Shown here one piece after another: positions 13,790-60,239 of a stretch of DNA of 64,000 nt (position 1 is its first letter; every line of letters begins with the position of its first letter). The position numbers and the translations under genes were made by a program. Source of the stretch: Heptranchias perlo (Eukaryota); NCBI RefSeq assembly GCF_035084215.1, contig NC_090352.1, forward strand, positions 18,910,001 through 18,974,000, given 5' to 3'. The notes under the pieces were generated by a model that was given only the letters and a program-made list of their open reading frames with translations, did no database searches and was not told the origin of the DNA.

Positions 13790-15105
13790 TCAACCATGAC
13801 CATGTAACAGTGAACAGGGAGTGAATGACCATTTAATTGTGAACAGGGAGAGAATGATCATGTGATTGTGAACAGGGAGTGAAATGACCATGTAACAGTG
13901 AATAGGGAGTGAATGACATTGTAATGGTGAACAGGGAGTGAATGACCATGTATTGGTGAACAGGGAGTGAATGATCATGTAATTGTGACCATGTAACAGT
14001 GAACAGAGAGTGAATGACCATGTAACTGTGAACAGGGAGTGAATGACCATGTAATTGTGAACAGGGAGTGAATGACCATGTAATTGTGAACAGGGAGTGA
14101 ATGACCATGTAATTGTGAACAGGGAGTAAATGACCATGTAATTGTGGACAGGGAATGAATGAGCATGTAACATTGAACAGGGAGTGAATGACCATGTAAC
14201 AGTGAATAGGGAGTGAATTACCATTAAATTGTGAACAGGGAGTGAAATCACCATGTAACAGTGAACAGGGAGTGAATGATCATGTAATTGTGAACAGGGA
14301 ATGAAATCACCATGTAACAGTGAACAGGGAGTGAATGAGCATGTAACATTGAACAGGGAGTGAATGACCATGTAACAGTGAATAGGGAGTGAATGATCAT
14401 GTAATGGCGAACAGGGCGTGAATGACCATGAAATGGCGAGTAGGGTGTGAATGACCATGTAATGGTGAACAGGGAGTGAATGACCATGTAATTGTGAACA
14501 GGGAGTGAATGATCATGTAATGGCGAATAGGGTGTGAATGACCATGTAATTGTGAACAGGGAGTGAATGACCATGTAATTGTGAACAGGGAGTGAATGAC
14601 CATGTAATTGTGAACAGGGAGTGAATGATCATGTAATTGTGAACAGGGAGTGAATGATCATATAAATTGTGAACAGGGAGTGAAATCATCATGTAACAGT
14701 GAACAGGGAGTGAATGACAATGTAATGGTGAACAGTGAGTGAATGACAATGTAACTGTGAACAGGGAGTGAATGACCATGTAATGGCGAACAGGGTGTGA
14801 ATGACCATGAAATGGCAAATAGGGAGTGAATGACCATGTAATTGTGAACAGGGAGTGAATGACCATGTAATTGTGAACAGGGAGTGAATGACCATGTAAT
14901 TGTGAACAGGGAGTGAATGACCATGTAATGGTGAACAGGGAGTGAATGATCATGTAATTGTGAGCATAAAACAGTGAACAGAGAGTGAATGACCATGTAT
15001 TGTGAACAGGGAGTGAATGAGTGTGTGACAGTGAACAGGGAGTGAATGAGCATGTAACAGTGAACAGGGAGTGAATGAGCATGTAACAGTGAGCAGGGAG
15101 TGAAT
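13790..15105. repeat. Minisatellite, 29-bp unit tgtgaacagggagtgaatgaccatgtaat, about 45 copies
   Basis: The tandem unit is directly visible, with 29- and 30-bp variants. The overlapping periodic ORFs are artefacts of the repeat. Confidence 0.97.
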
Positions 15106-19310: not shown

Positions 19311-19599
19311 TTCAGGAAGCCTAGAATAAAAAAGTAGGGGGTTAAATTCGATTGGGCCAATAATCAGGCACGACGACAGTGATCTGCGACTAACTCGCGT
19401 TCGGTGTTTCCTGCGCAGGCAGTACAAGAACTTTGTGCTGCCTGCTAATTAGAATGATTCCTCCGTACAGTCAGTGCTACCTGTACTGTTGAGGGGCTGC
19501 ACAGAGAATCAGGAAGCCCGAAATGGGGCGTGGCCAGTGCACGTCACAGGCAGCCTGAACCTCTTAAAGGTGCAGGTGCACATTTTTAATGGCAGATGC

Positions 19600-21446: not shown

Positions 21447-21640
21447 TCCCCTTTAATTTGCATAATTTCATTCGTTAATTGATAAATGTGACTTTGAATT
21501 TGCATTTGATGGTGGTTTTTATTTGTGCGATGAGCTGAGGGGGAAAGTAATGTGCAATCAGATGGGGACAATTTGATGGTCACGTGGGGGTGGACAGGTG
21601 GGGACTGTAGGATGTTGGTGATTTTGAGATGTAGTTGACA

Positions 21641-22839
21641 TTATTGATAGCGGGCATGGATCAGGTGTGCACGCGGAGCCCTTGCAGACAAGGCGTGTGT
21701 TCCTTGTTGCCCCCTTGCGTCTTCCTCCACTTCCTGCTCCGGCTCTTCCCTCTCCTTCTCTTCAGCCTCTTCCTCCTCCTCTTCCTCCTCCTTCTCCTCC
21801 TCACCTCTGGCTCGGGGTCTTGTCTGATCATCGGTGTCAAGGACAGGCCCCTCATGATGGCACAGTTGTGCAGCATGCAGCATACCACCACGAATCTTCC
21901 CACCCACTCAGCGGTGTACTGCAGGGCTCCTCCAGAACAGTCCAGGCAGCAGAAGCATTGCTTCAGGGGGCCTATGGTGTGCTCCACAATGTTGCGTGTG
22001 GCAGCATGGCTCTCATTGTAGGCCTGCTCTGCACATGTGCGTGGGTTCCTGACTGGAGTCATGAGCCACTGCATGACGGGATAGCCCTTGTCACCCAGTA
22101 GCCAGCCTTTGACTTGCCGAGTTGGATGAAAGATAGCTGGCACGTTGGACTGCTGCATAACGAAGGTGTCATGAGGGTAGCGGGCATTGACCTCCATGAT
22201 TCGAGGGCGTGTGATCGCACACCAGCTGCACGTTCAGGGAGTGGAAGTCCTTTCGGTTGATGAAGACGGCCGAGTTGATACGGGGGGGCACATAGAACAA
22301 TGTGCGTTCAGTCAATGGCACCCTGCAGCGTGGGGAAGCCTGCAATGTGAGCAAACCTTCGTGCTCGCTGGTTCTGTTTGTCTCTATCAAGAGGGAACGT
22401 GATGAACCTGTTCCTCATCTCACACAGTGCGTCTGTGACCTCCCTTATGCAGCAGTGCACTGCATACTGCGAGATGTTGCACATATCACCAGCAGAGGCC
22501 TGAAATGATCCTGAGCCATAAAGTTCAGCGCCACAGTTACCTTCACAGCTACAGGCAATGCTCCTTGTTCTGCTCTGATGCTGCAGTTGTGGCCGGCACC
22601 AGTTGACAGATCTCCATCACGACCTCCTTGGTGAACCTTACCCATCAGATGCAATGCTCCTCGTTCAGGTTGAGGTAAGAGAATTGGTCCCTGAAGGCCC
22701 TCATTGGATTTGGCCTCCTACTCAGTGCCCTGCACCTCCTCCTCCTCCCTCTCTTCTCAGCATGACCTGCTCTGCATGGCCTCTCTGCATGCTCCCAATT
22801 GTGTTCAATGCCCAGCGGGAGCGCTAGCAGACAACCCAT
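21641..22839 (-). pseudogene. Harbinger (HARBI1-like) DDE transposase, frameshifted
   Basis: Motifs ALPVAVKVTVALNF, GFPTLQGAID*TH, NRKDFHSLNVQLVCD, GWLLGDKGYP, YNESHAATRNIVEHTIG and VVCCMLHN. Confidence 0.93.
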
Positions 22840-23339
22840 GGTGCCAGGAATCTTGTTCAACCACGGTCGTAATTTTCCGACCTGTAAGGCAGTACCTGCC
22901 AAACCACCCTCAAATGTACTCTAGCAATTCTCATTAAGTATAGAGAGCTTCAAAAAACACTTCCTATTCTATCAGCAGCCAGAAGCAATAATCCAGCAAC
23001 TAACCTGCAACACCTTTAAATCGCGCTGGTGGGTGGTCCTCCAGGCAGTAAGACATGTTCAGGTGTGCATGGTTAAGACTGTGCATTGAGTTGAGTTAAG
23101 TTCCAAAATGGTGTCTATCACTTTAAATCAGCGTTGCACACTGATTGTACGCATTTTCTCCCTCCTTTACATGCTTCCGGCGTTCGCTCTTTGCGTATGT
23201 GCTAATAACTATACCAATATGGCGTCCGGCGCACATCACGCTCGAAAATTGCATGCGCATCCACGATGCCATCTTGGCACTCCAGGAGGCTGCGTATCAC
23301 CAATCAACGAGCCCTAGATGGCCCAATTTCTAGCCCATA

Positions 23340-26785: not shown

Positions 26786-27933
26786 ATCTCCAGTCTTAAT
26801 TATTTTTTCATTTTCAGTAAATTTCTATTTGTTGCTACATTGAGTTGTCACTGAAACAGCTCATTGAGAATATGTAAAATTGTAATTTTTCTTCTAACTT
26901 TTTACCATACACTCCACCCTTGCTTGTTTGGTGTTAAATAGCTCAGGCCTGAATTTCCAAAATTGGTCTAAACATGCTGTAATCTGGGCAGGCAGGAGCA
27001 GAAATTGGGGTGGAAGTTGGTTCAGAATCATTTATTGATTTCTGACTGGACTGAATTAGTGAATGCTACTGCACTGTAAAATAAACTGCTTTGGAAATGT
27101 GTAAGTCAAGCTATTTCTCATCTGTTATTTGAAGTCAAGGTTTTTGGTTTGTTTTATTTTTCTGGAGAGGTCAAACTTCTCCCCACCCAATCCCTTCTCA
27201 GATTAACTTGTTACCCAATTTGGTTTTTCTGAGTTCTGTCACAAATTGCTTGGGTTGTTTCCTTGTATTGAGATCATGACTGACAACTTGCATCTTAACC
27301 CGAAAGCCCTGTGGAACACCAGTTCATTCGTGGTTTGGCTACTGAGACTCAGCCAATAAAATTTGTATTATCGTACTGTAGAATCGGTTAAGCAAGGTCC
27401 CCACACTTTGTTTCCTCAGTCACAATTTGTACAGGATTTGTGTTGAGTGCGTAATTTGCACACCCAAAAACAGCCAGGCATTTTATTGCGCCATTCAATT
27501 GAGAGAAATATATCATATGGCACATTTTTTTGTCATTTTTGCCCTCGCAACGCTGGGTGCAAAGGACGCTTGCATGTCAGGTATTGCTCATGCCGTAGGA
27601 GTGTATTTAAAGTTCAAAAGGTTTTGTTTCCCAATCGCAATCAGTCACACAGAGATCTAGGGGTGTGGGTACATAGATCTTTAAAGGTGGGGGTGGGGGG
27701 AAGTGCAGGTAGAAAAGGTCATAAAAAAGGCAAATGAGATTCTTTTATGGAATCAAAGAAGTTTACAGTACCGAAGGAAGCCATATAGCGCATTGTGCTG
27801 GCTCGATACGAGAGCAAGATCCAATGGTCTCTGTCTCAACCACTCCCGATATGGAGATGCCGGTGATGGACTGGGGTTGACAATTGTAAACAATTTTACA
27901 ACACCAAGTTATAGTCCAGCAATTTTATTTGAA

Positions 27934-27974
27934 ATTCACAAGCTTTCAGAGGCTTCCTCCTTCCTCAGGTGAAT
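27934..27974 (-). ncRNA. Minimal type-I hammerhead ribozyme motif, minus copy
   Basis: AUUCAC-CUGAGGA-A-GGAGG-AAG-CCUCU-GAAA-GC-UU-GUGAAU. Stem II carries one G.U wobble. Confidence 0.7.
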
Positions 27975-27999
27975 GTTGTGGAGCAATTTTATCCACAAC

Positions 28000-28040
28000 A
28001 TTCACCTGAGGAAGGAGGAAGCCTCCGAAAGCTTGTGAAT
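28000..28040 (+). ncRNA. Minimal type-I hammerhead ribozyme motif, plus copy
   Basis: Stem I AUUCAC/GUGAAU, core CUGAGGA, stem II GGAGG/CCUCC, then GAAA and a palindromic AGCU stem III. Predicted cleavage after CUU at 28034. Confidence 0.78.
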
Positions 28041-28105
28041 TTCAAATAAAATTGCTGGACTATAACTTGGTGTTGTAAAATTGTTTACAATTGTCAACCA
28101 CTCCC

Positions 28106-29346: not shown

Positions 29347-31819
29347 ATAAGAACATAAGAAATAGGAGCAGGAGTAGGCCATACGGCCCCTCGAACCTGC
29401 TCCACCAATTAATAAGATCATGGCTGATCTTCGACCTCAACTCCACTTTCCCGCTCGATCCCCATATCCCTTGACTCCCTTAGAGCACAAAAATCTATCG
29501 ATCTCAGTCTTGAATATACTTAACGACTGAACATCCACAGCCCTCTGGGGTAGAGAATTCCAAAGATTCACCACCCTCTGAGTGAGGAAATTTCTTCTCA
29601 TCTCAGTCCTAAATCACCCACCCCTTATCCTGAATCCTGAGACTATGCCCCCTAGTTCTAGACTCTCCAGCCAGGGGACATGGCCTCTTTGCATCTACCC
29701 CATCAAGCCCTCTAAGAATTTTATACTTTTCAATTAGATCACCTCTCCTTCTTCTAAACTCCAGAGAATATAGGCCCATTCTTTTCAATCTCTCCTCATA
29801 GGACAATCCTCTCATCCCAGGAATCAATCTAGTGAACCTTCATTGCACCCCCTCTAAGGCAAGTATATCCTTCCTTAGGTAAAGAGACCAAAACTGTACA
29901 CAGTGCTCCAGGTGTGGTCTCACCAAAGCCCTGTAAAATCGTAGCAAGACTTCCTTACTCTTGTATTCCAACCCCCTTGCAATAAAGGCCAACATAACAT
30001 TTGCCTTCCTAATTGCTTGCTGTACCTGCATGTTAACTTTCTGTCTTTCATGGCCAATAACACCCAAATCTCTCTGGACACCAACATTTAATAGTTTCTC
30101 ACCAAAGTGAATAACCTCACATTTTCCTACATTATATTCCATCTGCCACCTTCTTGCCCACTCACTTAACCTGTTTATATTCCTTTGCAGACTCTTTGGG
30201 CTCAATTTTAGCCCCAAGATCAGGGACGGGGGGGGGGGGGGGGGGAGGGGCAGACAAAATTGATGTTTTTAGGCGCAGGCAGGCATCCTGGCTCCAACCC
30301 GCCCATTTTTGCATTAGACCCAGGCAGATCTGTGTGCGTGTGCACAGCAGTCGCCAGGAAGTCCCGCCCTCACTTTAATCCAGTGGGCCAATACTTAAAG
30401 GGGCAATGTACCTCATTGAGATACGTAAGGTACTTTGGCCCCGATTTTGGAATGGAAGCTGGATGGCAGCGGGGGAAGGGGTGTGAATGGGCGCATGGGT
30501 AACGCAACTAATAAAATATGCTAGTTTCGCACGCGATCGCAAATGAATTGGTGCCACTTAACATGGCTTCCAGGTTTGCTGTCCGAAAGCTACGCAGTGG
30601 GAGGACTGCGCACCCGCATCACAGGCTGTCAGCTGGAGGAGCACTATTTAAAGAGCCATTGCTCCAAAGGCTTTTGCTGGAGCAAAGACCCATAAATCAC
30701 AATGGAGCAGCACAGGGGCAAGGCTGCTCCAAGGTTCAGCGAAGTCTCACTGCAGAAGCTACTGGACGGGGTGAGGAGGGGGAGGGATGTGTTTTACCCC
30801 GGGGATGGAAGGAAGTGCCCTGCCTCTGCCACCAAGAAGGCCTGGCTCGAGGTGGCAGACAAGGTCACCAGCAGCAGCAACATCTCCTGCACCTGGATCC
30901 AGTGCAGGAAGTGATTCAGTGACCAGCCAAAGTGAGTACACTTATCGATTCTCCTGCATTCCGTGTTCCACATCACCGCTCCCCCCCTGCCAATTCATTC
31001 TGCACTGCCAAGACTACTCCATCACTTCACTCCTCACACCCACTTAAGGCTCATCCTCAACTTACCTGCACTTCCTCTGCAATTCCTCACCTCCCCATTA
31101 GTCACCCCACCACTACCACTCACCCCAATCCTCATCCAATGTGATGGCTCTGTCTCATACTCACCCTCTGATGCATCTCTTTCATGGTTAGCCTCACCCA
31201 AACCAATGCATTCATTGGTTGGCCACTTCACCATCACTTACTCACACGTCTGTTCTTTCTCCCCTTCTAGAAGAGAGCGCAAAATGCACGAGAAAGGGCA
31301 AGGACTGGAGGGGGGCCACAACAAATAGTGGTCCTCACAGACACGGAGCAGGCAGCCCTGCAGGGGACGCCGAGACTGGCACCCCACAAAAGTCTGGTGA
31401 CACAACTTTAACATTCATAACACACAATATGAATTGATGTTAACAATGCTTACCAGGCACTGATCCTTGCGGCACCCCACTAGTTACAGACTGCCTACCT
31501 AAAAATGACCCGTTTATTCCTACTCTCTGTTTTCTGTCTGTTAACCAATCCTGTATCCATGCTAATATATTATCCCCAACCCCATGAGCCCTTATCTTGT
31601 GCAACAACCTTTTGTGTAGCACCTTATCGAATGTCTTTTGAAAATCCAAATATACTACATCCACTGGTTCTCCTTTATGTATCCTATCAGTTACAGCCTC
31701 AAAAATCTCTAATAAATTTGTCAAACATGATTTCCCTTTCATAAAACCATGTTAATTTTGCCCAATCATATGATTTTCTAAGTGCCCTGTTACTTAATAA
31801 TGGATTCCAGCATTTTCCC
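29347..31819 (-). mobile_element. Chimeric CR1 (copy 2) inserted in the L2
   Basis: Tail ataagaacataagaa at 29347. CR1 runs to 30197, the DNA-element fragment occupies 30198-30436, and CR1 RT resumes at about 31455-31819 (DFQKTFDKV, GVPQGSV). Confidence 0.9.
30437..31440 (+). mobile_element. Truncated Harbinger (second family) with a Myb/SANT exon
   Basis: Terminus ggccccgatttt at 30437. ORF 30702..30914 reads AAPRFSEVSLQKLLDGV...TKKAWLEVADKV...TWIQCRK. Confidence 0.85.
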
Positions 31820-31923: not shown

Positions 31924-33834
31924 GGGAGTTAAATTGGTTAACCCCTGAAAATGGGCTCTGGGATCGCAGTGCGTGATTAACCCGCTCCCGGTTGTTGCGA
32001 TGCAGGCAGCACGCAACATTCGTGCTGCCTGGTGATTTCAATGATTGCTGCGTGCAGCCCGCACGACCTGCGCTTTTGAGTGACTGCACGCATCAGCAGG
32101 AGTCCCCGATATCGGGAGTGGCTAGCACCACTTAAAGGCAGCCTGCACATTTTAAGGGGGAGGTGCACTGTGGCTGGAGGAAGTGGTGGAAGTGAATTGT
32201 GAAGTGAATCTGTGCTGCAATATAGTGAAACATGGTGATGATGGGAACTCTGGAATTTTTAATGAGCAACAACTTGGCTGCTCGATGTTTGAGGGACTCT
32301 GATATTTGCAAAATATAAGATATGGGTCTGAACAAAGTCTGAACGGAGATCAGAAATAGCACACGTAAAACACAGATGCAAGTCTCGTCCTTATGTTTAA
32401 AAACTATTATTTTATTTTAAAATATCAAATAAAGGTTGCTCAAAACTACATCCCACATCTTCCAATCTGCACACCAGACCTCACCAATCTGCCGATCTGA
32501 GTTTGTACCAGGCCTGCGAGACAATGTGCACCAAGGTTCTCTGATGATACACTAGAGGCCTTGGTGCAAGAGATGGACAGAAGAAGGAGCATCCTATATC
32601 CTCAGGGGGGCAAGAGGCCCTCCAGATATATGCTCGCGAGGCAGTGGGAGGCAGTAGGGGACAAAGTCAATGCCAGGAGCATAGCACCACGAACATGGAT
32701 GCAGTGCAGGAAGAAGTGCAATGATTTGACACGAGTGGTCAAGGTGCGTGACTTCAACTGTCAAGTGGCATCACCTACCAACTGCACCACGAGCCGCATC
32801 CACTGCACCATGCACTACACCCCCCATCACCCACATACCAACAAACTCTTTCAATCAGTTACTGAACTCTTCCACTCAGATGCTTCATCTCACCCTCACA
32901 CATTACCACTGTTGCAAGCCGCACACCCACAACTCACAGGTCACACGCACTGGCAGCTATTCAACCATGACAGCCACATCACCCAAACATCTTGCAGGAC
33001 ACTCACTGACACACTTCCCTCTTTCCTGCAGGAGAAGGTGGCGCATAACAGTAGGCAGCAAGTGGCAGTGGCTCCATGGAACATGAACCTGCTGTCCTCT
33101 CTCAGGAAGACAGCATTCCTGTCCCACCCCAGCCACTCCGCCAGTGCCCTTGTTGTTGTCTGTCAGCTACCCAGCCCACTCCCCGTAGAGTATTGATACT
33201 TTATTATAGGAACATAGGAACAGGAGTAGGCCATTTAGACCCTCGAGCCTGTTCCGCCATTCAACGAGATCATGTGACCTAACTCCATATATAACCTTAG
33301 CCCCATATCCGTTAATACCTTTGGTTAACAATTGAGCTAGCACCAACTGCTGTTTGTGGGAGAGAGTTCCAAACTTCCTAATTTCACTCCTGAAAGTCCT
33401 GGATCTAATTTTTAGGCTATGTCCCCTCGTCCTAGTATTCAAGTACAGGAGACCACCAAAAACAGGTACAAATGCATCAGCAGGCAGAAGCAATAATCCA
33501 GCAACTAACCTGTAACTTCCGTATGATCCCTTTAAATAGCGCTGGTAGGGAGTCCTCCATGCCGTTTAAGACCTGCTCAGCTGTGCGAGGTTAAGATAGT
33601 GCGTTGGCTGGAGCGTGGAGCTCCAAAATAACAGTGGCCCCTTTAAATCAGCGTTGAACACTGATTTACGTCATGATCGTCCTACTCTACATGCTGCAGG
33701 CGTTCGTTTGGCAAACCACTTTACCAAGATGGCGTCCTGCGCACGTCACACAAAGTTCTCGGACGCCATTTTCGGGGCTTAGCTGCCCGTGTAGCGCCTA
33801 CAGAACAGGCGCCACATGGCCCAATTTAGCCCCC
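31924..33834 (+). mobile_element. Internally deleted Harbinger of the same family as 19337-23336
   Basis: TIRs gggagttaaattgg and ccaatttagccccc (12/14). Myb exon 1 (WEAVGDKVNARSIAPRTWMQCRKKCNDL) and a GT-AG intron at 32744-33031. The transposase is deleted. The right end matches about 22900-23336. Confidence 0.88.
33205..33437 (-). mobile_element. Short CR1 3' end inside the Harbinger
   Basis: Tail ataggaacataggaacaggagtaggcc and the TRGHSLKI motif. Confidence 0.8.
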
Positions 33835-34516: not shown

Positions 34517-35469
34517 ATGATATATTTAATATTTAATATCTCCACCATAACTTCATCTTCCACAATTGGCCTCCACTCCTCAGTGATCTCTGCCCTTGCC
34601 TTAGCTCATCTGCTGCTGAAACCCTCTAGATTTGACTATTCGAATGGTTGTCCTCCCATCTTCCACCCTTCATAAACTTGAGCTCATCCAAAACGCTACT
34701 GCCGTATCCTAACTCGCACCAAGTCCCGTTCACCCATCACTCCTGTGCTCGCTGACATCTACATTGGCTCCCGATCAGGCAAGGCCTCGATTTTAAAATT
34801 CTCATCCTTATTTTGAAATTCCTCCATTGCCTCGCCCCTCCCTACCTCTATAACCTCCTCCAGCCCTGCAACCCTCCGAGATCTCTGCGCCCCTCCAATT
34901 CTTGCCTCTTGCGCATCCCCGATTTTAATCGCTCCACCATTGGCAGCCGTGCTTTCAGCTCGGGAATTCCCTCCCTAAACCTCTCTGCCTCTCTACCTCT
35001 CTCTCCTCCTTTAAGACGCACCTTAAAACCTACCTCTTTGACCAAGCTTTTGGTCACCTCTCCTAGTATCTCCTTAAGTGGCTTGGTGTCAAATTTTGTT
35101 TGAGAAGCATCTTGGGGCGTTCTGCTATGTTAAAAGCGCTATATAAATGCAAGTTGTTATTATCTCTAACAATTGTTTCATGCCCTCCTTTGAGGGTACA
35201 TTCTCACTTTACTATCATTTGTAAAAACTGATAATATCTCCACCATAATTTCATCCTCCACAATTGGCCTCCATTCCTCAGTGGTCCTACCCTCCCTTCA
35301 ACTGTTTATTTTTTATATGGTAATAAAGCTCTTCTTTTCATATTATCTGCTAGCCTTTTTTCATATTCCCTTTTAACCCTTGTAATTTCGATTTCCCCTT
35401 GCCACTACACTTTCATTGCACTCTCTTCATGGCACTAATATATTTTATATAATATATATAATAATTTCT

Positions 35470-37944: not shown

Positions 37945-38042
37945 TCAAAGTCAATGGAAAGGAAAATTGTCAGGCTTTATAACAGGCGGCTGATTCATAA
38001 TCATGCGTTTTACTCCCTCCCGCAAAGTTGAATTTTACCCCC
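37945..38042. mobile_element. Right half of the hairpin MITE family seen at 50178 and 53586
   Basis: aaagtcaatggaaaggaaaatt...tataacaggcggctgattcat...gaattttaccccc. Confidence 0.55.
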
Positions 38043-39323: not shown

Positions 39324-39598
39324 CATCCCCCTCCTGATCGGTCCCCTCGCCCGCTCGCCCACTTTCCGATCGGCCCCCTCTCCCAGTCATCCCCCTCCTG
39401 ACCGGTCCCCTCGCCCGTTTGCCCACTTCCCGATCGGCCCCCTCTCCCAGTCATCCCCCTCCTGATCGGTCCCCTCGCCCGCTCGCCCACTTCCCGATCG
39501 GCCCCCTCTCCCAGTCATCCCCCTCCTGATCGGTCCCCTTACCTGTTCATCCCCTCCCGATTAGCCCTTCTCTCCCGGTCGCCATCCTCCCGATCGCT
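39324..39598. repeat. C-rich tandem repeat, 64-bp unit (two 32-bp subunits), about 4.3 copies
   Basis: catccccctcctga recurs at 39324, 39388, 39452 and 39516. Confidence 0.92.
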
Positions 39599-43269: not shown

Positions 43270-44200
43270 TTACACTTTCATCATGGGTTTCCTTAGTGGA
43301 ATCCTGTTGTATTTATGTTATTTAGAGGAAGAAGAGGTGGAAGAAAGGAATAATGCCAGGAAGGTGAGGTTGCACCAGGGACAGATAGACGAACCTGCCA
43401 GAGGCTACTAAAGTAACCACAGCACTCAACGTTTACACATCAGGCTCATTCCAAGGTCCTACAATATCAATCAATGTACAGTGTATAGGTGATTGTACAG
43501 GTGACCAATGGTTTATTTGCTAATGCAAGCAATAATATCACTTCCCCCATGGACAACCAGCAAAAGTATGAGAGGGCTTAGGATGTTTTCAAAATGGCAG
43601 TGTTCCCCCAAAGTGCAAGGTGCCACTGATCGCACCCACGTTCCTGCACACAACAGTCACACCTTCATGCACTACAAGGGCTACAGCTCCATCAACACTC
43701 AGTCCGTATGAGACCAACAGCACTGGATCATACAGGTCAATGCCCACTTCCAGGCAGCAATCATGAAGGACTGCCTTAATAATTGCCTCACAAAAGAAGA
43801 GTGTATGGTTAGTTTCTCGCAGACCAAGGATAACATCTTGAGCACTTGCTAATGGGTACCTCTATAGCCACCTGTGAACAGATGCCAAGTAGAGATACAA
43901 TGAGGTATCAGCATCATTATTCAACTCAGCATTCACACCTGGAAACAGTGCTTCCAATGCCTTGACAGCTTATGGGGCTTCCTACTTTATAGTCTGGCAA
44001 AGATCTCCAGGATGACCACGGTCTGCTACATGTGCCAACAACTTCACAAATCTAAGAAACATAAATATAGAGCAGAGGAGGAGAACAATCAATCGCTGCA
44101 GGCAGGAAAACAAGACGAGCCAGAAGTTCCTGCTCCTGAAACATTTATTTAGGCTGCACGAGTGGTAAGCAAGGCTCTCACTGAGAAGAGTATCTCCTAA
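43270..44200 (+). pseudogene. Highly decayed Harbinger transposase
   Basis: PKVQGATDRTHV resembles P.VQGAIDCTHV, and YKGYSSINTQSV resembles RKGYHSINVQ.V. Decayed NEV and CYMC..LH segments follow, then an acidic tail. Confidence 0.7.
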
Positions 44201-44854: not shown

Positions 44855-45160
44855 TTCTAGGCACTTACCTGCAGTCTCGGGCCGTCTCACCTCCTTTCAC
44901 GAGGCGTAAAACAGAAGGCCTGGGAATTCCGGCCCCCTGGGGTTGAATTGGGGAATTGGCTACATTTGGAGGCCTTCTTGAAAGGTTTTAAGGCCCGACC
45001 CGCCTGCCGGGAGCGGGTTGGCTGTCCGCCCCTCATCCTGCCCCCGTGAAAACTGGAAATGGGTGGGTTGGAGGCGGTTTGGGGGCGTGTCTGAAATTAT
45101 GGCAATTTTCAATGCCCCCCGCTCCCATTCCACCCGGTTTTTACTTTGAAAATCGAGCCC
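44855..45160. mobile_element. GC-rich Harbinger-type MITE fragment
   Basis: Ends in aaaatcgagccc. The reverse complement resembles the start of the 1001 and 30198 elements. Confidence 0.6.
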
Positions 45161-47800: not shown

Positions 47801-49809
47801 AAACCACACCTAGTCCGAATGCATTATCTTAAGCAGGTCCCCTCTACTTTGTGCACTAATTCCAGTCAGCTTTAACTACAACCTGTCCTGCATTGATAGC
47901 TCTAAACTCTTCCCTGTTCCCTCTTCATCCCCTTGATAGAGGATATAATTGTTAAGTTGTGGGACTCACCACAAAATATTCTGCTGCCTTCTCAAGCATA
48001 AATTAATCTAAGAATAGTACTAGACTGATGGTTATGACACTTGTGGAGTAGAAAGATGGTATTGTAGGCATGGTAAGAAGCAAACCAACTTGCACCCCTG
48101 AAAAGTATAATATTCTTTGTCAGCTGGGTGTCTGATACGCACAGAAATGCAGCACCATGTTTAAGACACCCTCAGATGTGGAGAGTTGGGGAAATAAGGT
48201 CTTAGACCTTTCCTAGTGAAGGCTCAAATACATTTATTTATTCTTCCATGATCACTAATCCCTTTTGGCTAATTCTCCTATTTCAGTTTTTCTCATCTAA
48301 GGGCCTAGGCGCTATGCTAGGACTTTGCATCCTCTCTGGGACTGGTTGGGAAGGGAATGAAGAACAGCTTATCTGGTGAGACAAGACTTGTCTCCTGTAT
48401 CCTGTTTCATGAAAAGGAAAAGCAGAAACACAATTTCATTTCCAATCTCTAATCTCACTTTAGCGTTGACTTTTATTGACACCATAGGATTTTAGGATTG
48501 TGCTGTATTTAATCGTTTGAAGGTATCCCAGTTCAATAATTAATTTTGTTGTATGAGTATTCAGGTCACCAGCAACAGCTTAATGAATGCATCTCTTTGT
48601 CATACCAATGCCAAGTTTGTACAGCAGCGTCTGACTTACAAGGGACTTTTTTTAAGCTTTGTTCTATTGAGATTAAATGTTAAGAAGCAGTAGCACAGCT
48701 GTGTTTTACAGTTCGGAATATTTTTCTCATTGTTTATTAACCTTGTTGAATCAACTTATTGTTTATAATGGAGAATGACAAATAGTTTCATTTGAAAAGT
48801 AATGGGTTTATAAGCCTGTAGCTCTTAAGTGGTAAAAGAGGACAGATTACATTTTCCTTCAAGGCTAATCACATCATTCTGAATTATCCTTCCTGTTTCA
48901 ATATTCCTATTTCAAGTTGGTTGCTTCAAGCTAATATGTTAAACAATGAAGACCCCTTTGTTCATCAGACACTTAATTCAGCACTGATGTTGATGATTAC
49001 CTGCATTTATCATTAGATATTGTTTTTGTCTGCACTATATACATTAGTAATGGAATTGCAGGTGCAATCATTTAACATTTCAATGTTTAATCAACAAAGC
49101 ACACTTAATTTTCCTAATCAATAAAGTAGTGTTGTGAACTGGACATTTGTAAACTTCATTTTTGAAAATTTAGACTAATATTCTCCTGATATCATTCAAT
49201 GCATTCACATTATGAGTGGAGATCTGCCTAACCTATTCATTTATACGTGCTGGTATTCCAAGATTGCCTGTTCCACCTGGGATTAAACCAAGATGATTTA
49301 TCTTCCATTGTAGCTAAATCCTCCTCAGAGAACCTTTTCTAACTTTCCAATATTTAGTGCACTGTCTCTGTCTGACGCTTCACTTTAAAACCACAATGTA
49401 TCACTGGAAAACCTTTTTTTCTTTCATTCTCATGTGTCGACTTTTTAAAGGAGAACTCGATCACTATTAAACTATGCATGAGTCAGGTCTGCTTTTTGTA
49501 TCTGCCTTTTGATGTTGCTGGCAGATGAGCAAGAAGCTACATTACCTTTCTATTGGATGTGTTCATGTGCAGTATTGATGGTATCACTTCTCAGCTCACT
49601 CATCCTGCCAGCTGAAGGTTAAAGCAGGGAACAAAATAAACGCCTGGACCATTTCAATCCCATTTCTAGATATAGCAAATCAGAATATTATGGCTATGAT
49701 TTTCATGTCATAAAATAAATGTGCCTTATTGCCTCTAAGAAAAGATATTAATAGGAAATATCAGCCCCTTCATATATGAATGTTATTTCAAAAGGAAAAT
49801 GCTCCCCTG

Positions 49810-50930
49810 ATGTCTATTGGGTAAAAGCATTGCCCAATGTAGCACTAAGCTCAGAAGGTTGCAGCTTTAATGCCCGATCAATCCTGAGGTAGCTCATCTT
49901 AGCCAGAAAAATTGTAGAGTGTCGCATTGGGACTTAATGCTTCAGAGATAGGGAGGGAGAAAAAACAGCCTGTTTTCCTGATCGTTACCCAGTCAACCCT
50001 GCTCTAAAGTGCCTGTGTGTAGGAGCCGGGTGAGAACGAGGCCTGGCTCAGCTGTGATATTCTGGATGAAACATCTGCTAACATTTACCTTCAAGGCTAA
50101 AACACAAAAATGGCCACTTGGGTGAGGTACTAGGGGATTGCTGGTGCCAATGGAGCCAAATCCCAGCGAGACTTAGTGGGGGTGAAATTGGTCTTTGTGG
50201 AAGCGCCAATTAGGCAATAACGAATCGGCCACCCATTTTACGTTCCGCCCGAATTTCTTTTCCAAGGACTTCGATCGGGCGGGGTGTAAAACAGGTTACC
50301 GATTCACTACTGCCCGTTTTGCGTTACCACAGAAGACCAGTTTTACCCGCAGGATCTGCAGGGGATATATTTAAACAGAGTTACCCTACTTGCTGCAAAA
50401 TACAAATTATCAGCTACATTTTGGTACATAAATTGCATCTCTGCATAAGACTGCTTTTTTCAGTAAAAATCCTTCAAATTGCATCAGTTTATAAGTGAAA
50501 GCCATGTAGATGAGGAAGATAAAAATGTGCATGTAGGTGCAACTTATACATCAACTTTTATGGTAACTATCTTGAGTAGCACTTAACCATGCAGAGCAGG
50601 TTGATTTCCTGGTCTGTGTTGAGTTAGCTGATTCTAGGCAGGACAGAAATTGAGGCACTACAATTGGCCCTCGTACCCCTGGGCTAAGGAGGGGCAAATC
50701 AGCCAATGGTCCCACTCCTTATTGCTGTACAGTGATTCCTGATGGAAAGTGCACTTGTAGCAATAATGGCTTGGTAATTATGCCCTCTGTGCTTGAACAG
50801 CCTAGCATCACTCACTGTCTAGGCTCACATGTAAAGAATAGGCACTTTGGCAAAGCGCTGAAGGGCTTCCATCACTCTTGGAATTGTATTCTATCAACAG
50901 TGATAAGAGTGGAGAAATTTGCAAAAAATA
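49810..50930 (+). mobile_element. Two decayed copies (about 49810-50177 and 50595-50930) of an ancient SINE, AmnSINE2-like; more pieces at about 51810-51910, 52190-52245 and 59925-60220 (-)
   Basis: Shared motifs ggtctgtgttgagttagctgat, gcactacaattggcc and tggccacttgggtgaggtac. The copies resemble each other. The family name is from recall only. Confidence 0.55.
50178..50350. mobile_element. 173-bp palindromic (hairpin) MITE with Harbinger-type ends
   Basis: The left arm gggggtgaaattggtctt...ccgcccga is an imperfect inverse of the right arm tcgggcgg...aagaccagttttacccgc. Flanks are agt/agg. Confidence 0.8.
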
Positions 50931-51364
50931 TGCATATTACCCTTTGAAAGGCTTAAATCTGCTTGTGTCTCAAAGCACAGTTTTTATCAGTCTGTTTTGG
51001 AGATGCTTCACCCCATCTACTTGATCTATTTCCAGCACACTCTTCTAGTGGAACATCGGAATTGCTCAACAAATAGTGACCAAAGTTCATCCAGTTTGCC
51101 TTCTACCATCCTAGTGGTTGCATGATCCAACAATTACAGAGTTGTTGACTAATCGTGGCAATCAATCTCTATCAATTAGTCTATAACAGACCCAGACACA
51201 AGGCGAAGAAAACCCCAATGGTAGAAAACTTTGGGAACCATAGGCCCAAATTTCTCTCTCACATGTGATGTATAGTAAGTTTGTGACCATCTGTGTTGAA
51301 AAGCTAATCATATAATTACAACTGATAAGCCTTTGAAATTTCTACCAGTCTGGATCAATTGACC

Positions 51365-51652
51365 TTAATTCTGGCCTCTTGCGCATCCCCGATTTTCTTC
51401 ACTTCATTATTGGTGGCCGTGCCTTCAGCTGCCTAGGCCCTAAGCTCTGCAATTCTCTCCCCAAACCTCTCTACCTCTCTCTTCTCTTTTAAGACGCTCC
51501 TTAAAACCTATCTCTTTGACCAAGCTTTTGTTCACCTGTCCTAATATCTCATGTGGCTTGGTGTCAAATTTTGTTTGGTAATCGCTCCTGTGAAGCACCA
51601 TGGGATGTTTTACTACATTAAAGGCGCTATATAAATGCAAGTTGTTGTTGTT
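51365..51652 (+). mobile_element. L2 3' end
   Basis: Matches 4545-4828 and 34895-35160. Tail aaaggcgctatataaatgcaagttgttgttg. Confidence 0.9.
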
Positions 51653-53585
51653 AATTCTGTATGCATGGACAGAAAATTGTTGACTTTTTTTTGACCTAAG
51701 TAACACCAGAAATCTGAAGAAGTGCTGTGGCAGGAAAAGTCTTACATGTTGCAGTACACACGTTGACGACTTTACATTCCACTAATTGTAAAATATAATG
51801 GATAGTTGGCTTCTTCCAGTGACTCTGTGAGTAAATGCACTGTGGGGTATTGCTATGAACCAAATCAAGCAGCCAGGTCCCAGGTTTGATCTCTCGTCTG
51901 TGCTGAGTTCAGTTGCTTTTATATTGCACGGGGCCTGTGCTAGTTGTGCCGGCTTCCAGTATGCAGATCGCATGCAGTTGGCTGAAACCCAAATGGAAAC
52001 TTACTTTGATGTGCTGAGGCCAGCGATCAGGAAGATCTGGTAAAAATGAATCTTCCCAATTGTTAACCGTAGAAAATCCTGGCAAATTTACATTTGGATT
52101 GTCACAGCCTGCACAAGATCTGTACATCGGAAACAGGTGCCACTAGCACGGGTCTTAATACAATATAAAAGGCAGCTTTAGTTGATCTCAATCCTGGGCT
52201 AGTGAGAGTTCTTCTGATTGCTATTCAATGACCCCTATGGGGAAGAAAAATATTGATCAGGTTAGTGTGTACACTCTTTTTATTTCACTCATGACATTGC
52301 ATAATCCACCGTTAACTTTCTCTTTTGTGACCTGATCGTCCTCACTTATACGTTATAAATCATATTCCTCAGTAATTCACTATCTACTCAATGGGACACA
52401 TCAGCTCTTGTTTTTGCATTGTTGCCTCCAAATAAATAGTTTAAAGACTAAATATGTTGATGGGGTTAGATGAAGAGGCTCGTGTGGAGCATAAACCCCA
52501 GCACAGCCCAGCATGTTGTAATTTTTATGTAATCTGTGTAATCTATGAATGAGTATCTAATTGTGTTCATTACTTTTAACAAAGTTCAGTACATTAGAAC
52601 CTTCCTCGACTGTTATGTACAGTCAGTACTGTATTCTATTCTTGTTAAATACCAGGTTGTACCCAAGTTTAACTGCAGGCTTTTCTTCACTGCCGCATCA
52701 GAGAGCTTGAGACCCACAACTTGCCTTTCCCACAAGCACAGCAGTTTAGGTCGTGCCAGTGCTCAACCAGCTCAGCACAAACACTAAGCTAGCACTCAAT
52801 TCCGGCCCAATCCATCACCTGCTTTCCACTGCCATGTATCGATTTGCCTAGTCAAGCGAGCTGTGTAGATCAATAAATGTTTTTTAGAGCAATATTGTGT
52901 GGGGCTAAATAAATTAGTTTATTTTGTAATAGGAAGAAACAAGGTGTCACTCAGCAGGGCTGGTGCTACAATTTCCTTTCATTACAACCTCAGTGTCCAC
53001 TGATTGGAAAAGTCAAGGTAAAAAGTTACCAGTGGCTTTACCTTTCAGTGAACCATCTTAAAAAAAATTTAAAGGCAATATCTGAATTTTTTTCCCCCCT
53101 TGGCTAAGCTGAGGTTAATACAAAGACTTGTGTTCCTAGATTAGTTCCTAGATTAGTTTGCTCTTCACAGTTTGTGATCGGTTTTTTCAACTGCGCCTTA
53201 CGCAGATGTAGAGATAATGCACTCCAGTGTCAGTGGTGATAGATATTGCACATGGAAGCATATATAGTATGTCAATAAGGATTACATATGTAAAGATATC
53301 TGACATATAGAATTAATTAAGCTCTTTCTGACGTTAAAAATGTTTTGCGAGCAGATCATCTATGGAATTGCCTGATGTTAAGGTGAAAGGTATGTTTTTT
53401 TTTGCAATGATCAGTGCGTTATACTATGTAATATACAATGTAAAAAACATCCCTGTGCTCTCAGGGCACATTGTGCAGAACAGTTAGAAAGCTAAAGAGC
53501 CCACACAAATAAAAAAAATGCAGAAAGACCTTTGGACATGGAGATCATTTACCACCTTCGACCCCATGACTGAACAGAAGAGTTT

Positions 53586-56500
53586 GGGATAGAAATTTGT
53601 CAAGGAAGGCAGCGCAAAATGGGCGGTACGGAATCGCCCGCCTGTTATACCCCCCGCCTGTTATACTCCCCAAACGATATACTCCCTGCCCGTTATACCC
53701 CCCGCCTGTTATACTCCCCAAACGATATACTCCCTGCCCGTTATACCCCCACCTGTTATACTCCCCACTCGATATACTCCCTGCCTGTTATACCCCCCGC
53801 CTGTTATACTCCCCAAACGATATACTCCCTGCCCGTTATACCCCCACCTGTTATACTCCCCAAACGATATACTCCCTGCCCGTTATACCCCCCACCTGTT
53901 ATACTCCCCACTCGATATACTCCCTGCCCGTTATACCCCCCACCTGTTATACTCCCCACTCGATATACTCCCTGCACGTTATACCCCCACCTGTTATACT
54001 CCCCAAACGATATACTCCCTGCCCATTATACCCCCCACCTGTTATACTCCCCACTCGATATGCTCCCTGCCTGTTATACCCCCCACCTGTTATACTCCCC
54101 ACTCGATATACTCCCTGCCTGTTATACCCCCCACCTGTTATACTCCCCAAACAATATACTCCCTGCCCTTTATACCCCCCACCTCTTATACACCCGACTC
54201 GATATACTCCCTTCCCGTTGTACATCCCACCTGTTATACACCCCGCCCCGCCCATTATAGGCCCCGCCCATTATACCTCCGCCCGATATACTCCCTGCCC
54301 ATTACACTCTAAGCCTGTTGTAACCCCATCCATTATACCCCACCTCTGATATACACCCTGCCCATTATATCCCCTGCCTGTAATACTCCCCCCCATTATA
54401 CTATATGCCTGTTATACAACCTGCCGTTATACACCCCGCCGTTATACACCCCACCCGTTATACACACCGCCCATTATACCACCCACCCGTGATACCCTAC
54501 GCCCGTTATACTCCCCCACGTTATACATCCCACCAGTTATACTCCCCGCCCGTTATGCTCCCCTGCCCGTTATACACCCCGCCCGTTATACACCCCGCCC
54601 GTTATACACCGCGCCCGTTATACACCCCGCCCGTTATACTCCCCGCCCGTTATAAACCTCGCCCGTTATACACCCCGCCCGTTATACACCCCGCCCGTTA
54701 TACTCCCCCGCCCGTTATACTCCCCGCCCGTTATACACCGCGCCCGTTATACACCCCGCCCGTTATACTCCCCGCCCGTTATAAACCTCGCCCGTTATAC
54801 ACCCCGCCCGTTATACTCCACGCCCGTTATGCACCCCGCCCGTTATACACCCCGCCCGTTATACACCCCGCCCGTTGTACTCCCCGCCCGTTGTACACCG
54901 CCCCCGTTATACACCCCGCCCGTTATACACCCCGCCCGTTGTACTCCCCGCCCGTTGTACACCGCCCCCGTTATACACCCCGCCTGTTATACTCCCCGCC
55001 CGTTATACACCGCGCCCGTTATACACCCCGCCCGTTATACTCCCCGCCCGTTATAAACCTCGCCCGTTATACACCCCGCCCGTTGTACACCGCCCCCGTT
55101 ATACACCCCGCCCGTTATACACCCCGCCCGTTGTACTCCCCGCCCGTTGTACACCGCCCCTGTTATACACCCCGCCTGTTATACTCCCCGCCCGTTATAC
55201 ACCGCGCCCGTTATACACCCCGCCCGTTATACTCCCCGCCCGTTATAAACCTCGCCCGTTATACGCCCCGCCCGTTATACTCCCCGACCGTTATACACGC
55301 CGCCCGATATACACCCCGCCCGTTATACACCCCGCCCGATATACACCCCGCCCGTTATACACCCCGCCCGATATACTCCCCGCCCGTTATACACCCCGCC
55401 CGTTATACACCCCGCCCGATATACTCCCCGCCCGTTATACACCTCGCCCGTTATACACCCCGCCCGTTATACTCCCCGCCCATTATACTCCCCGCCCGTT
55501 ATACACCCCGCCCGTTATACTCCACGCCCGTTATACTCCCCGCCCGTTATACACCCCGCCCGTTATACTCCACGCCCGTTATACTCCCCGCCCGTTATAC
55601 TCCCCGCCCTTTATACAGCTCGCCCGTTATACACCCCGCCCATTATACTCCCCGACCGTTATACACCCCGCCCGATATACACCCCGCCCGTTATACTCCC
55701 TGCCCGTTCTACACCACGCCCGATATACTCCCCGCCCGTTATACACCTCGCCCGTTATACACCCCGCCCGTTATACTCCCCGCCCGTTATAAACCTCGCC
55801 CGTTATACGCCCCGCCCGTTATACTCCCCGACCGTTATACACGCCGCCCGATATACACCCCGCCCGTTATACACCCCGCCCGATATACACCCCGCCCGAT
55901 ATACTCCCCGCCCGTTATACTCCCCGCCCGTTATACACCCCGCCCGTTATACTCCACGCCCGTTATACTCCCCGCCCGTTATACTCCCCGCCCGTTATAC
56001 AGCTCGCCCGTTATACACCCCGCCCATTATACTCCCCGACCGTTATACACCCCGCCCGATATACACCCCGCCCGTTATACTCCCCGCCCGTTCTACACCA
56101 CGCCCGATATACTCCCCGCCTGTTATACTCCCCGCCCAATATACTCCCCGCCCGTTATACACCCCGCCCGTTATGCACCCCACCCATTATACTCCCCACC
56201 CGTTATATACCGCCCCCGTTATACACCCCGCCCAATATACACCCCGCCTGATATACACCCCGCCCGTTATACTCCCTGCCCGTTATACACCCCGCCTGAT
56301 ATACACCCCGCCCGTTATACTCCCTGCCCGTTATACACCCCGCCTGTTATACTCCCCGCCCGTTATACACCCCGCCCGTTATACACCCCGCCCATTATAC
56401 ACCCCGCCCATTATACTCCCCGCCCGTTATACTCCCCGCCCGTTATACACCCTGCCCGTTATACTCCCCACCCGTTATATACCGCCCCCGTTATACACCC

Positions 56501-57354
56501 CGCCTGATATACACCCCGCCCGTTATACTCCCTGCCCGTTATACACCCCGCCTGTTATACTCCCCGCCCGTTATGCACCCCACCCATTATACTCCCCACC
56601 CGTTATATACCGCCCCCGTTATACACCCCGCCTGATATACACCCCGCCCGTTATACTCCCTGCCCGTTATACACCCCGCCTGTTATACTCCCCGCCCGTT
56701 ATACACCCCGCCCGTTATACACCCCGCCCATTATACTCCCCGCCCGTTATACTCCCCGCCCGTTATACACCCTGCCCGTTATACACCCCGCCCATCATAC
56801 TCCCCGCCCGTTATACTCCCCGCCCGTTATGCACCCCGCCCATTATACACCCCGCCCGTTATACACCCCGCTTGTTATACACCCTGCCCATTATACACCC
56901 TGCCTGTTATACACCCCGCCCGTTATACACCCCGCCCTTTATACTCCCCACCCATTATACACCCCGCCCATTATACACCCCGCCTGTTATACACCCTGCC
57001 CGTTATACACCCCGCCTGTTATACTCCTTGCCCATTATACACCCTGCCCGTTATACTCCCTGCCCGTTATACACCCCGCCTGTTATACTCCCCACCCGTT
57101 ATACACCCTGCCCGTTATACTCCCCGCCCGTTATACTCCCCGCCCGTTATACACCCCGCCCGTTATACTCCTTGCCTGTTATACACCCCACCCGTTATAT
57201 TCCCCGCCCGTTATACTCCCCGCCCGAGTAGTTCCATTGACTAATAAAATGAATTGAAATGAATATTAAGTAAGGAGTAAGACAGAGGGCCGATACAATG
57301 CCGCCCATTTAGCGCAACCCCTCCTCCACTCCCCAGAAGATGAATTTCTACTCC
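53586..57354. mobile_element. Hairpin MITE inflated by an internal minisatellite
   Basis: TIRs gggatagaaatttgtc and gatgaatttctactcc, TSD ttt. Inner arm sequence gcgcaaaatgggcggta pairs with tgccgcccatttagcgc. Confidence 0.82.
53636..57226. repeat. Minisatellite, 16-bp unit cgttatac(a/t)ccccgcc, about 225 copies; the 5' part is a 47-48-bp trimer
   Basis: The unit is directly visible. The ORFs show 16-aa periodicity (3 units = 48 nt). Confidence 0.97.
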
Positions 57355-59469
57355 TTTACCTCACCTCTGAAAAGAACCCTCCGGCTGCATTAAACTGAGA
57401 GTTAAGAGTTTCCTGAAAAAAGTAACTAAAAATTATATTACAATAAAATCCCATTACACCTAGAAAGTTCAGTGTGTGGGATTTATGTTCAAGTGCAGCT
57501 TTTAGCAAAAAAAAGGGTATATGAAATGAGGAAGTCTAATGTTGGTAAAATGTTGCTGGTGCCAATTCAGTTTTGCTGGCAAATAAAATGTAATGTCTTC
57601 TTGTAAACTTTAACTGATAAAGGAGGATGAAATTATAATCTTTTCAGAATAAACAAGGAAGATTGGGGGCTGATGCCAGTGAACACATTCCTTTGTATGT
57701 GTGCAGGAGCCATGGTTGTGCCATGGCTTCTGGGAATTGTCGTCTTTTCTGTGGGAACTGGACTATTGTGCATGCTCACTTTGTTATTTTACATCAGTGC
57801 CATTATATCGTGTCTCCAAACTTGAGGAATAAACTGGCTGGGTTGAAATAGTCGAGTATGGAAAGGGTGTTTTACCCAGAGTCCACGATGTTTAGTGGCC
57901 TGGCGTGGTGCATTGCGGTGTTTGTGGGCAAGTAGGGAAAAGCAATTGGAGTCGAGTGTGACAAAATAGAGAATTTTTTGTCTTTCACTTCATACAGTTC
58001 TAAAATGACTATAGTTAAAATGGAAGTTGCATTTTCCTTACCATATTTCAGTGTGAAGGCCAGGAGACGGGTTGTCTGCAGAACTCAAGCCAGAGTAATC
58101 AACCTGGAGGTTAATTGGGGCTTTATTTTAGTTGCGAATTGAATTATACAGGGTCAAAGCATTTAGCAGTTATGTGAGATCTGGAAAAACATGGGGACAC
58201 CTGCTCATCAGTGTTCTATGTAATTAATTCAATAATGCTGACTAGAATGCTTTGGACTGTTCTCAGCATTGGAGAAGTCTTCATCTCTTTAATTTTAGGA
58301 GGAGATCTGAAATCCATGGGTGCACTAGAAATTTCTATCCATGTACAACATTACATCATGAAGGTTTACGAAAGACTATGTCATCAAAAAGTCCTGTGGC
58401 TTACCAAATTGCGTAAGAAATTTAACCCCTTGTGGGGTGATTTTACTTTTATTGTATTGCATTCTTAGTGTGTCTTCCTGCTTCAATAGATTGTTCAACC
58501 TAGAAATAACTATTAGTTTTAGCTTGAGCATGTTGGTTTGGCGCTGCAGTATTTTCTGCCTTTTGAAAGATGGTGGACAAACCCATAAGATCCCCAGTGA
58601 TCAACACCATGATTAGGGGGTAATTTTTAATCCGGGGTATGCTATATCATACATTGTATGTGTAAGGCATTGGTTTATAGGACATCTGGCCTGCTTATGA
58701 AAAACAGCTTTTTTATGCGACCGCAAAGGTGTTGGGAGAAAGCCTGAACTATTACAACAAGTTTAGGGGCAAGTTGATGATTTATTTTGTCTTTGGATTT
58801 TCTTTAATCTATTATGTTGCATGTTATTTCTACAGCTATCTGGTGATGGGTGAGGAACTAACAGGATCGTGGAAAGGAGTTTGAAATAATTTCTTCCGTG
58901 ATTTCATTATTGTGAATGGGAATTTTTTGAGAGACAGTGTTTTTTGATTGGCTGAGATTTACCAATCAATATGCTTTGCATCTTTCAGCCATGATGACGT
59001 GGAGCAGACACAAAATGTTTAATGATATAGGTAGGTGTACAATCCAGAGGATACAGTCATAAAAATACACATCGCCTTCTATGACTAAAGATGCTGAAGA
59101 AAGGGAATAACAGTTTCTGACCTAAAAATCTGCTTTATTAAGCACTGCATGGTGATGCAGGCTTTTGTTCTGTCTGTCAGGGAATATGGATGGTGCAAAG
59201 AAATTCTCCCACACAAACCGTAAGATTCACTTGAGAAAAATTATCTCTGTGTCATAACTGTTACAGAGGCAAGAAAATATTAATTTGTAAAGTCTCTGAT
59301 ATTTTAAAGATATACATTATGTATAAGAGATTGGACAAGTCACCTTCACAAGTTGTCAAATACACAATACACACAGTTAAGATCAGCCAGGACCATCCCA
59401 GTGTTCCAACACACAATGCACAATGTGGAGTAGGGTCACCTGTACAGAGTATAAACCACTCAGTGTAGT

Positions 59470-59560
59470 AAGAATTGCTGGAAAGTTTCAGAAGGTCATT
59501 TAGCATCTGTGGAGAGAACAGAGAAGTTGATGTTTCAAGTGTAGACCTGTCATCAGAACT
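59470..59560 (-). mobile_element. Penelope-like terminal fragment with a decayed hammerhead motif (59525-59560)
   Basis: The minus strand reads AGUU-CUGAUGA-C-AGGU-CUAC-ACUU-GAAA-CAUC-AACU, followed by tctctccacagatgct...tttccagca. Confidence 0.65.
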
Positions 59561-60239
59561 GATGCTGACTGATGAGCTGACTCTTTCCATCACTTTTTGT
59601 AAGCAGAATGATTCCATTAACACTAATGATGCAGTGAAGATCTATTGAAAACAGTTTCTTTGTCACTCCAGCAGGTCAACTCCATGAAATGAATGAAGAC
59701 AGAGCAGCCATTAAAGAGTATTATTTGGAAAACAAGTCACTGAAAAAACACCACGCAGTTACCTTTTATTGAGGGATATAATTTTGGGACATGACTATAC
59801 TCCTGTAATAGACCTACCATAGCAAATGAATGTCAGAAATGTTTGGATGCATCCATTATTTTCTTTTCTGACCAAATATCTCCTGAGGATCTTCCTTCCT
59901 TGCTGAGGTACAGTTCCACATAATCCAGTTCCCCTCCAGTAGCTTGCCCAGCAGGCCAGTGTTCATGTGTGAACTTTGAAAGTAAGTGTCATTGGGGCAT
60001 TACAGTTGAGCCCCATCCAGTCTTCATCTAATGTCCATGCACACTCATTTCCAGCAGTATTAGATCGTAATCAGAAGTGGGAGCTCTGGCTGATTTTCCC
60101 ATCCCAGCCTCACAAATGCCGAGGCAGATTGTAACACCCCTACCACTGTCTTGGTTGAGATTAGTTAACTCAGCAATACTGAGGACTGAACCTGGGACTT
60201 CCTGGTCTGTGTGGCTTAGCGAGTTGGGGCTTCATAAAG

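Follow-up and report, generated by a model that had tools for sequence, protein, structure and literature searches.

The growth of a tandem array out of a transposable element is a route already known in plants, frogs and mammals, including one Harbinger family, and no new mechanism is involved in what follows. According to the parts of the reviews available to us, thousands of human minisatellites derive from transposons, and repeats derived from MITEs have been reviewed for Xenopus (Xstir and miDNA4), rye, oysters and ants (PMC12628747, PMC6947457, PMC9659126). The closest precedent for the locus described here is the Harbinger subfamily MtPH-A6-4 of Medicago truncatula. In the accessible portion of its description (PMC2213677), these elements are likewise of the Harbinger type and carry a subterminal tandem array at one or both ends, which at times leaves hardly any other sequence between the two terminal repeats; furthermore, 27 out of 27 further Medicago arrays had residual element ends. 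The two cases differ in the unit, which is 60 bp long and present in 2–35 copies in the plant and 16 bp long and present in 225 copies in the vertebrate, and also in what can be observed: a family of arrays was shown in Medicago, whereas a single locus is reported here, along with a visible unexpanded seed and its direct repeat.

Xenopus miDNA4 and Xstir/Xmix are likewise vertebrate MITEs with a repeat that occurs as a monomer or as an array (PMC12628747, PMC9659126, in the passages available); however, miDNA4 is a Tc1/mariner element with a captured central repeat, and Xstir has been explained by the fusion of two neighbouring elements, whereas in the present case the unit belongs to an arm and the ends are Harbinger-like. 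The GC-rich minisatellites of Alu, B1 and MaLR elements resemble this locus in that they expanded from a stretch of a dispersed element lying between short direct repeats, but their hosts are retroelements and not, as here, the arm of a DNA transposon (PMC6947457, in part). Tandem repeats within inverted-repeat elements are also listed for DTC84 of Donax trunculus (up to five central core repeats) and for Tetris of Drosophila virilis (its satellite being listed as TIR-220 arrays); unlike the element considered here, neither is listed as a Harbinger in the excerpts at hand. Lastly, the human minisatellites CEB1 and CEB25 are likewise GC-rich and strand-skewed, with G-quadruplex motifs (PMC3486850, PMC5491262, in the sections available), the folding of which is predicted in our case. 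A search of titles and abstracts on shark Harbinger tandem repeats and on cartilaginous-fish satellites, in a collection with few subscription papers, retrieved nothing on this repeat.

The window, i.e., the whole 64-kb stretch of DNA analysed in the present work, contains many decayed LINE reverse transcriptases, together with Harbinger fossils, a repeat landscape typical of cartilaginous fishes. The minisatellite and the element that houses it can be divided as follows (the strand is given after the coordinates):

53583–53585, plus: left 3-bp flank TTT, a likely target-site duplication.
53586–53636, plus: left arm of the array element, with its terminal inverted repeat at 53586–53597.
53637–57227, plus: the minisatellite, made up of 225 16-bp units that follow the consensus CCCGCCCGTTATAC(A/T)C, with a C-rich top strand.
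53637–54180, plus: 5' zone of the array, a three-unit higher-order repeat of 47/48 bp, 35 units, 15% off consensus.
54180–54560, plus: most diverged zone of the array, 23 units, nearly all unique, 17% off consensus (12% outside CpG).
54560–56750, plus: homogeneous core of the array, in which blocks have been duplicated in register, the copies lying 4 to 37 units apart.
56750–57227, plus: 3' zone of the array, with almost exclusively CpG transitions, terminating in the inner motif of the arm, CCCGCCCGA.
57228–57264, plus: central spacer of the array element, opening with a TTCCATTGACT stretch that is also found in the spacer of the third family arm (see below).
57265–57354, minus: right arm of the array element, with one decayed seed (57265–57290), a 13-bp insert and the terminal inverted repeat at 57343–57354.
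57355–57357, plus: right 3-bp flank TTT.

In the assembled sequence, Tandem Repeats Finder reported a 16-bp array of 224.5 copies with 82% matches at 53637–57226, and a wraparound alignment resolved it into 225 units (53637–57227) belonging to 80 unit types, 49 of which are singletons. The array is polar, its zones differing in structure and divergence from 5' to 3'; the core is 5–7% off consensus, and its longest exact duplicate measures 150 bp, at an offset of 544 bp. The left junction is real, since a contig from X1, which is possibly the assembled sample itself, matches the left flank, the arm and the first two units (52477–53668) without any difference. The open reading frames around the array are repeat-derived only. 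The proline/tyrosine-rich frames that run across it were rejected as genes: the unit is stop-free on the top strand and such frames occur in all three phases. Moreover, no Rfam match was retrieved from 49000–60000 and no tRNA gene was found; probing with a two-unit pattern retrieved no match from metagenome contigs and none from viral contigs, and a shorter unit pattern gave three single matches in prokaryote genomes, judged to be due to chance, and no array.

Two other arrays were observed in the window. The region 13796–15105 is a minisatellite in which a 29-bp unit recurs about 45 times, with higher-order periods of 58 and 87 bp, and around which no convincing bracketing inverted repeats were found. 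The region 39324–39596 is a C-rich array of a 64-bp unit repeated about four times, with a 32-bp sub-period, adjoining an apparent transposon end; it is possibly a second element-borne repeat, and the search for inverted repeats bracketing it found none.

The first-pass annotation of this DNA had placed the 16-bp array between the inverted arms of a MITE with TTT on either side, and both the arms (53586–53636 and 57291–57354) and the two triplets were found as quoted. The 12-bp terminal inverted repeats match each other at 10 out of 12 positions, and the chance that two random local 3-mers are equal, as the TTT flanks are, is 0.02. Excluding the seed, the two arms match at 38 out of 51 columns (13 differ). 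When the array is reduced to one unit, the element measures 203 bp and is predicted to form a hairpin (z = −4.2), with none of 100 shuffled sequences being equally stable. The right arm keeps one seed, decayed at seven positions; therefore, only the left arm has expanded.

Two further loci carry arms of the same kind, so that this family of small elements is represented at three loci within 64 kb:

50178–50350, plus: short unexpanded relative, a 173-bp hairpin with one seed per arm and the flanks AGT and AGG.
37945–38042, minus: third family arm, with a terminal repeat and a single seed.

The short element forms a single hairpin (z = −6.6; none of 200 shuffles was equally stable), its 3-bp flanks are equal at two out of three bases, and it carries both of the seeds that had been attributed to it, one per arm. 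The end opposite to the third arm was not found. The proposed kinship between the array element and the short element was confirmed by aligning the collapsed element with the latter: the alignment runs from end to end, with 118 matches in 169 columns and a score of 134.5, far above a background maximum of 77.5 over 921 windows. With the seed excluded, the array arms match the arms of the short element at 34 to 37 out of 50 positions, and 0 or 1 of 4000 background windows (a background that contains the family's own arms) were as good. The matches of the third arm are weaker (30/46 and 33/52) and were equalled by nine and two of 4000 background windows, respectively. Moreover, in a search with a seed-free profile built from the three non-array arms, the array arms ranked next after the training set, with weak E-values of 0.024 and 0.14; when the seed and the spacer were included in the profile, the E-values were 7e-10 and 6e-5. 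At the sequence level, the kinship of the two elements does not rest on the seed alone. With an identity of about 70%, the short element is a cousin of the array element and not its immediate ancestor.

Two other small elements were observed. The first (27875–28099) is a near-perfect palindrome of 225 bp, 97% self-complementary, that looks like a separate, young hairpin element, one end of which loosely fits the terminal pattern used for the arm search. The second (44939–45123) has GGG...CCC ends and CCCGACCCGCC-type motifs and gave no alignment to the arms of the array element.

The alignment of the arms on a common anchor revealed their internal organization, which consists of a CCGCC(C/T)G-type motif, nine bases, a second CCGCCCG and then an A. 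The unit of the array is the stretch between two 7-bp direct repeats, CCGCCCG, lying 16 bp apart in the arm, an aspect that is new here. The array starts at the first motif, in the register of the arm, and ends in the second one, beyond which the central spacer begins; the final letters of the array are those previously quoted, and its terminus is in register with the arm motif. The left arm of the array element and the third arm show the first CCGCCCG copy, and the two arms of the short element show the second; one of the two copies is absent from the right arm of the short element and from the third arm. Both copies are complete in only one out of four single-seed arms: the left seed of the short element retains the direct repeat at the 16-bp spacing (50229–50251), with CpG decay, and this is the only occurrence of the doubled motif outside the array in the 128 kb represented by both strands. 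The ancestral two-copy state of the arm is deduced from four decayed arms, one of which shows both copies. According to the model of Haber and Louis, as given in the available text of PMC6947457, the unit of a nascent minisatellite is flanked by direct repeats of 5–10 bp and is doubled by slippage or unequal exchange; the arrangement of the arm is what this model needs, a textbook seed for the birth of a minisatellite.

Outside the array, the unit (in any rotation, with up to three mismatches) was retrieved in the window only from the right arm of the short element and from the third arm, both of which belong to this family. Each of the other family arms of the window, three in all, holds a single seed. 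These data bear on the idea that the element captured a GC-rich satellite of unrelated origin, or received it by insertion, or that the likeness is due to chance. The unit is indeed short and low in complexity, and the capture of a pre-existing repeat has been proposed for miDNA4 (PMC12628747, in the excerpt available). However, the array lies in exact arm register at both ends and in unexpanded relatives each of the two arms has one copy of the unit at the matching place; because of the register between array and arm, this explanation is largely refuted, and we regard it as very improbable. The data support the view that the array derives from an arm motif of a small hairpin element, and the anatomy given in the first-pass annotation is right.

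The way in which the array has grown can be read from the distribution of its variants. Variant unit types are clustered, 23 of them having a mean span of 47.5 units versus 136 ± 8.5 in 1000 shuffles (minimum 110), and there are 15 identical in-register runs of 4–8 units with marker variants, which recur 4 to 37 units apart. Since the core holds exact duplicates of up to 150 bp while the arms differ at a quarter of their columns, most of the core would be much younger than the arms. The oldest units, on the other hand, are 17% diverged, near the 25% of the arms; therefore, a short array may have existed before the insertion of the element.

According to these data, our reading is that a dead Harbinger-type MITE probably provided the seed of the minisatellite, through the 7-bp direct repeat of its arm, and that the array then grew mostly on the spot by ordinary repeat slippage. 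The ancestral arm would have been CCGCCCG-N9-CCGCCCG, and a misalignment between the two 7-mers would have produced the first extra unit, with the start of the arm remaining to the left of the new repeat and its inner end to the right. Most of the length of the array would then be due to successive local duplications, each of 4 to 37 units, which would have continued long after the decay of the arms. During a large part of its existence the array would have been methylated in the germ line, and its evolution would probably have been neutral, neutrality being assumed.

The affiliation of the element was examined through its ends, in comparison with a coding Harbinger fossil of the window:

19337–23336, strand not assigned: decayed coding Harbinger element, with a transposase remnant (PF13359, minus strand, 21661–22230, E = 5e-19).

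The terminal 12-mer at the right end of this fossil matches the left end of the array element at 11 out of 12 positions and its right end at 10 out of 12. Only these 12 terminal bases are common to the two elements, and the seed is not shared; moreover, a looser version of the terminal pattern has many matches across the window. The array element is likely a Harbinger because of the 11/12 terminal match with the coding fossil together with the putative 3-bp flanking duplication, and it would likely represent a non-autonomous PIF/Harbinger transposon (a Tourist-like MITE). In plants, the target-site duplication of Harbinger elements is TTA/TAA, according to the portion of PMC2213677 at hand; the TTT flank is 3 bp long, as in the Harbinger superfamily, but differs from the plant sequence. 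An autonomous partner sharing the subterminal sequence is absent from the 64-kb window.

As regards the fossils themselves, the element at 19337–23336 is a full-length, decayed Harbinger with the remnant of a putative Myb-like gene on the plus strand, convergent with that of the transposase on the minus strand, and with the flanks GTA and ATA. Two fragments scanned for its Myb remnant gave no Pfam match, and the remnant was recognised by a DNA identity of 77% to a PF13873-coding stretch near 32650–33060. Further Harbinger-like fossils with Myb-like remnants occur at 31924–33190 and 30300–31400, among them a Myb/SANT remnant (PF13873, E = 1e-8) at 32501–33193, with no Pfam match being obtained for 30515–30919, and a heavily decayed, Harbinger-like transposase remnant was recognised by eye on the plus strand at 43300–44100.

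The possibility, put forward for the Myb protein as a speculation in the first-pass annotation, that the unit is a binding site for the Harbinger Myb/SANT protein, or an Sp/KLF GC box, and that the array has been kept for binding or regulation, can be evaluated on this basis. The seed is subterminal and symmetric in the two arms, a position from which a single seed may plausibly have served as a Myb site in the once-active element; in the available part of PMC9710019, the Myb-like protein of zebrafish Harbinger3_DR binds a 9-bp subterminal motif. The array contains 101 GGGCGGGG boxes, a motif that we take to be an Sp/KLF site, and its CpG observed/expected ratio is 1.68 versus 0.36 in the remaining window. 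Furthermore, a degenerate single 6-mer is somewhat commoner in the ends of coding Harbingers than in the window (7 in 900 bp versus 0.18 per 100 bp, a comparison not controlled for GC content). On the other side, neither the unit (with up to three mismatches) nor the doubled motif occurs in the ends of the coding Harbinger fossils, which thus point to no cognate protein, and the Myb genes of the window are decayed.

The mutational pattern of the array is also relevant here. Over 224 units, the transitions per site per unit amount to 0.143 at CpG, 0.023 at other C/G and 0.015 at A/T positions; over 79 distinct unit types, the corresponding values per site are 0.215, 0.040 and 0.025. CpG transitions are thus about six times as frequent as other C/G transitions, which indicates that the array would have been methylated in the germ line through much of its history; the young core shows no excess of CpG transitions (7 in 93 units). 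Such methylation speaks against a functional platform, as does the distribution of the variants, which is the one expected from neutral local turnover; the data lend no positive support to the Myb platform, and we consider such a function very improbable. A wider proposal, in which the unit would be a polymerised site of the transposon's own Myb/SANT protein and such arrays a family shared by related fish species (more abundant in organisms B and C, see below), serving as decoys or as landing sites of a Myb-like or Sp/KLF factor that has been domesticated, likewise seems to us a long shot; if true, it would represent a transposon recognition site turned into a length-variable regulatory element.

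The G-rich strand of the array contains 56 non-overlapping quadruplex motifs, with a mean G4Hunter score of 1.29, and the commonest of them has a middle loop of 8–9 nt. In the case of CEB25, according to the available sections of PMC3486850 and PMC5491262, only short-loop variants were unstable in yeast. Since the commonest motif is long-looped and the instability of CEB25 is limited to short-loop variants, the formation of G-quadruplexes would be at most a possible contributor to the instability of the array.

The region of the array was also compared with contigs from sequencing runs of several organisms. From a sample of 661 words of 50000–57700, 78–79% were present in four runs of organism A and 7–11% in 16 runs of six other organisms (B–G); no RNA run was listed among them, a result without bearing on expression. 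Array words occurring at least twice make up 10.9% of the sample, close to the share found in B–G; flanks at 84–91% identity, although orthologous, would yield only 0.4–6% of their words. The share found in B–G was discounted as evidence for the array, because high-copy repeats of the flank contribute to it as well.

The contig comparison covered 50000–53668, about half of 50000–57700, in four out of 23 runs. Among the matches listed, organisms B, C and E have single-copy contigs over parts of 51808–53075 with an identity of 84–91%, which represent the orthologous flank. This region looks non-coding and is usable as an anchor for the orthologous site. The neighbouring region 51350–51720 is a very high-copy repeat, whose summed depth approaches or exceeds a million in each of the four runs and which has copies at 4547–4827 and 34897–35161. 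The bins of the short element reach 20–100 times the depth of the single-copy flank in all four runs; therefore, these organisms have the family in common, and in many copies.

The bin 53567–53668, embedding the left arm and two units, reaches 426 times the depth of the single-copy flank in B and 450 times in C, while the values for A and E are 79 and 17 times, respectively; in B and C this is four to seven times the value of their short-element bin. As the bin mixes arm and unit and the summed contig depth is not a copy number, these values give hints that B and C hold more arm- or unit-like sequence. They would fit a history in which a mobile master copy acquired the first repeats, short arrays were spread by transposition and the present copy grew later, as in MtPH-A6-4 or Xenopus miDNA4. 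The most diverged units, being about as old as the arms, agree with this scenario, and a precedent exists in MtPH-A6-4, where 18 out of 23 members have 2–35 repeats (PMC2213677, in the part available). Nevertheless, the bin cannot tell arm from unit, and the array itself may supply much of the depth observed in A, as 166 of its 32-mers are at least 80% like the first two units; moreover, the three other family arms of the window are each single-seed and the unit variants cluster locally. We consider such an array-bearing subfamily possible, albeit rather unlikely. Taken together with our main reading of a local origin, the derivation of the array from the arm, by one course or the other, is very probable.

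The window thus provides a snapshot of the birth of a minisatellite, as it contains, over a short distance, a seed still unexpanded between its direct repeats, the array grown from such a seed and the two ends of the element. It also extends the pattern of Harbinger subterminal repeats from a plant to a vertebrate, probably a cartilaginous fish. The array would be a likely polymorphic marker, and it represents a test case for the idea that primed transposon arms seed arrays repeatedly.
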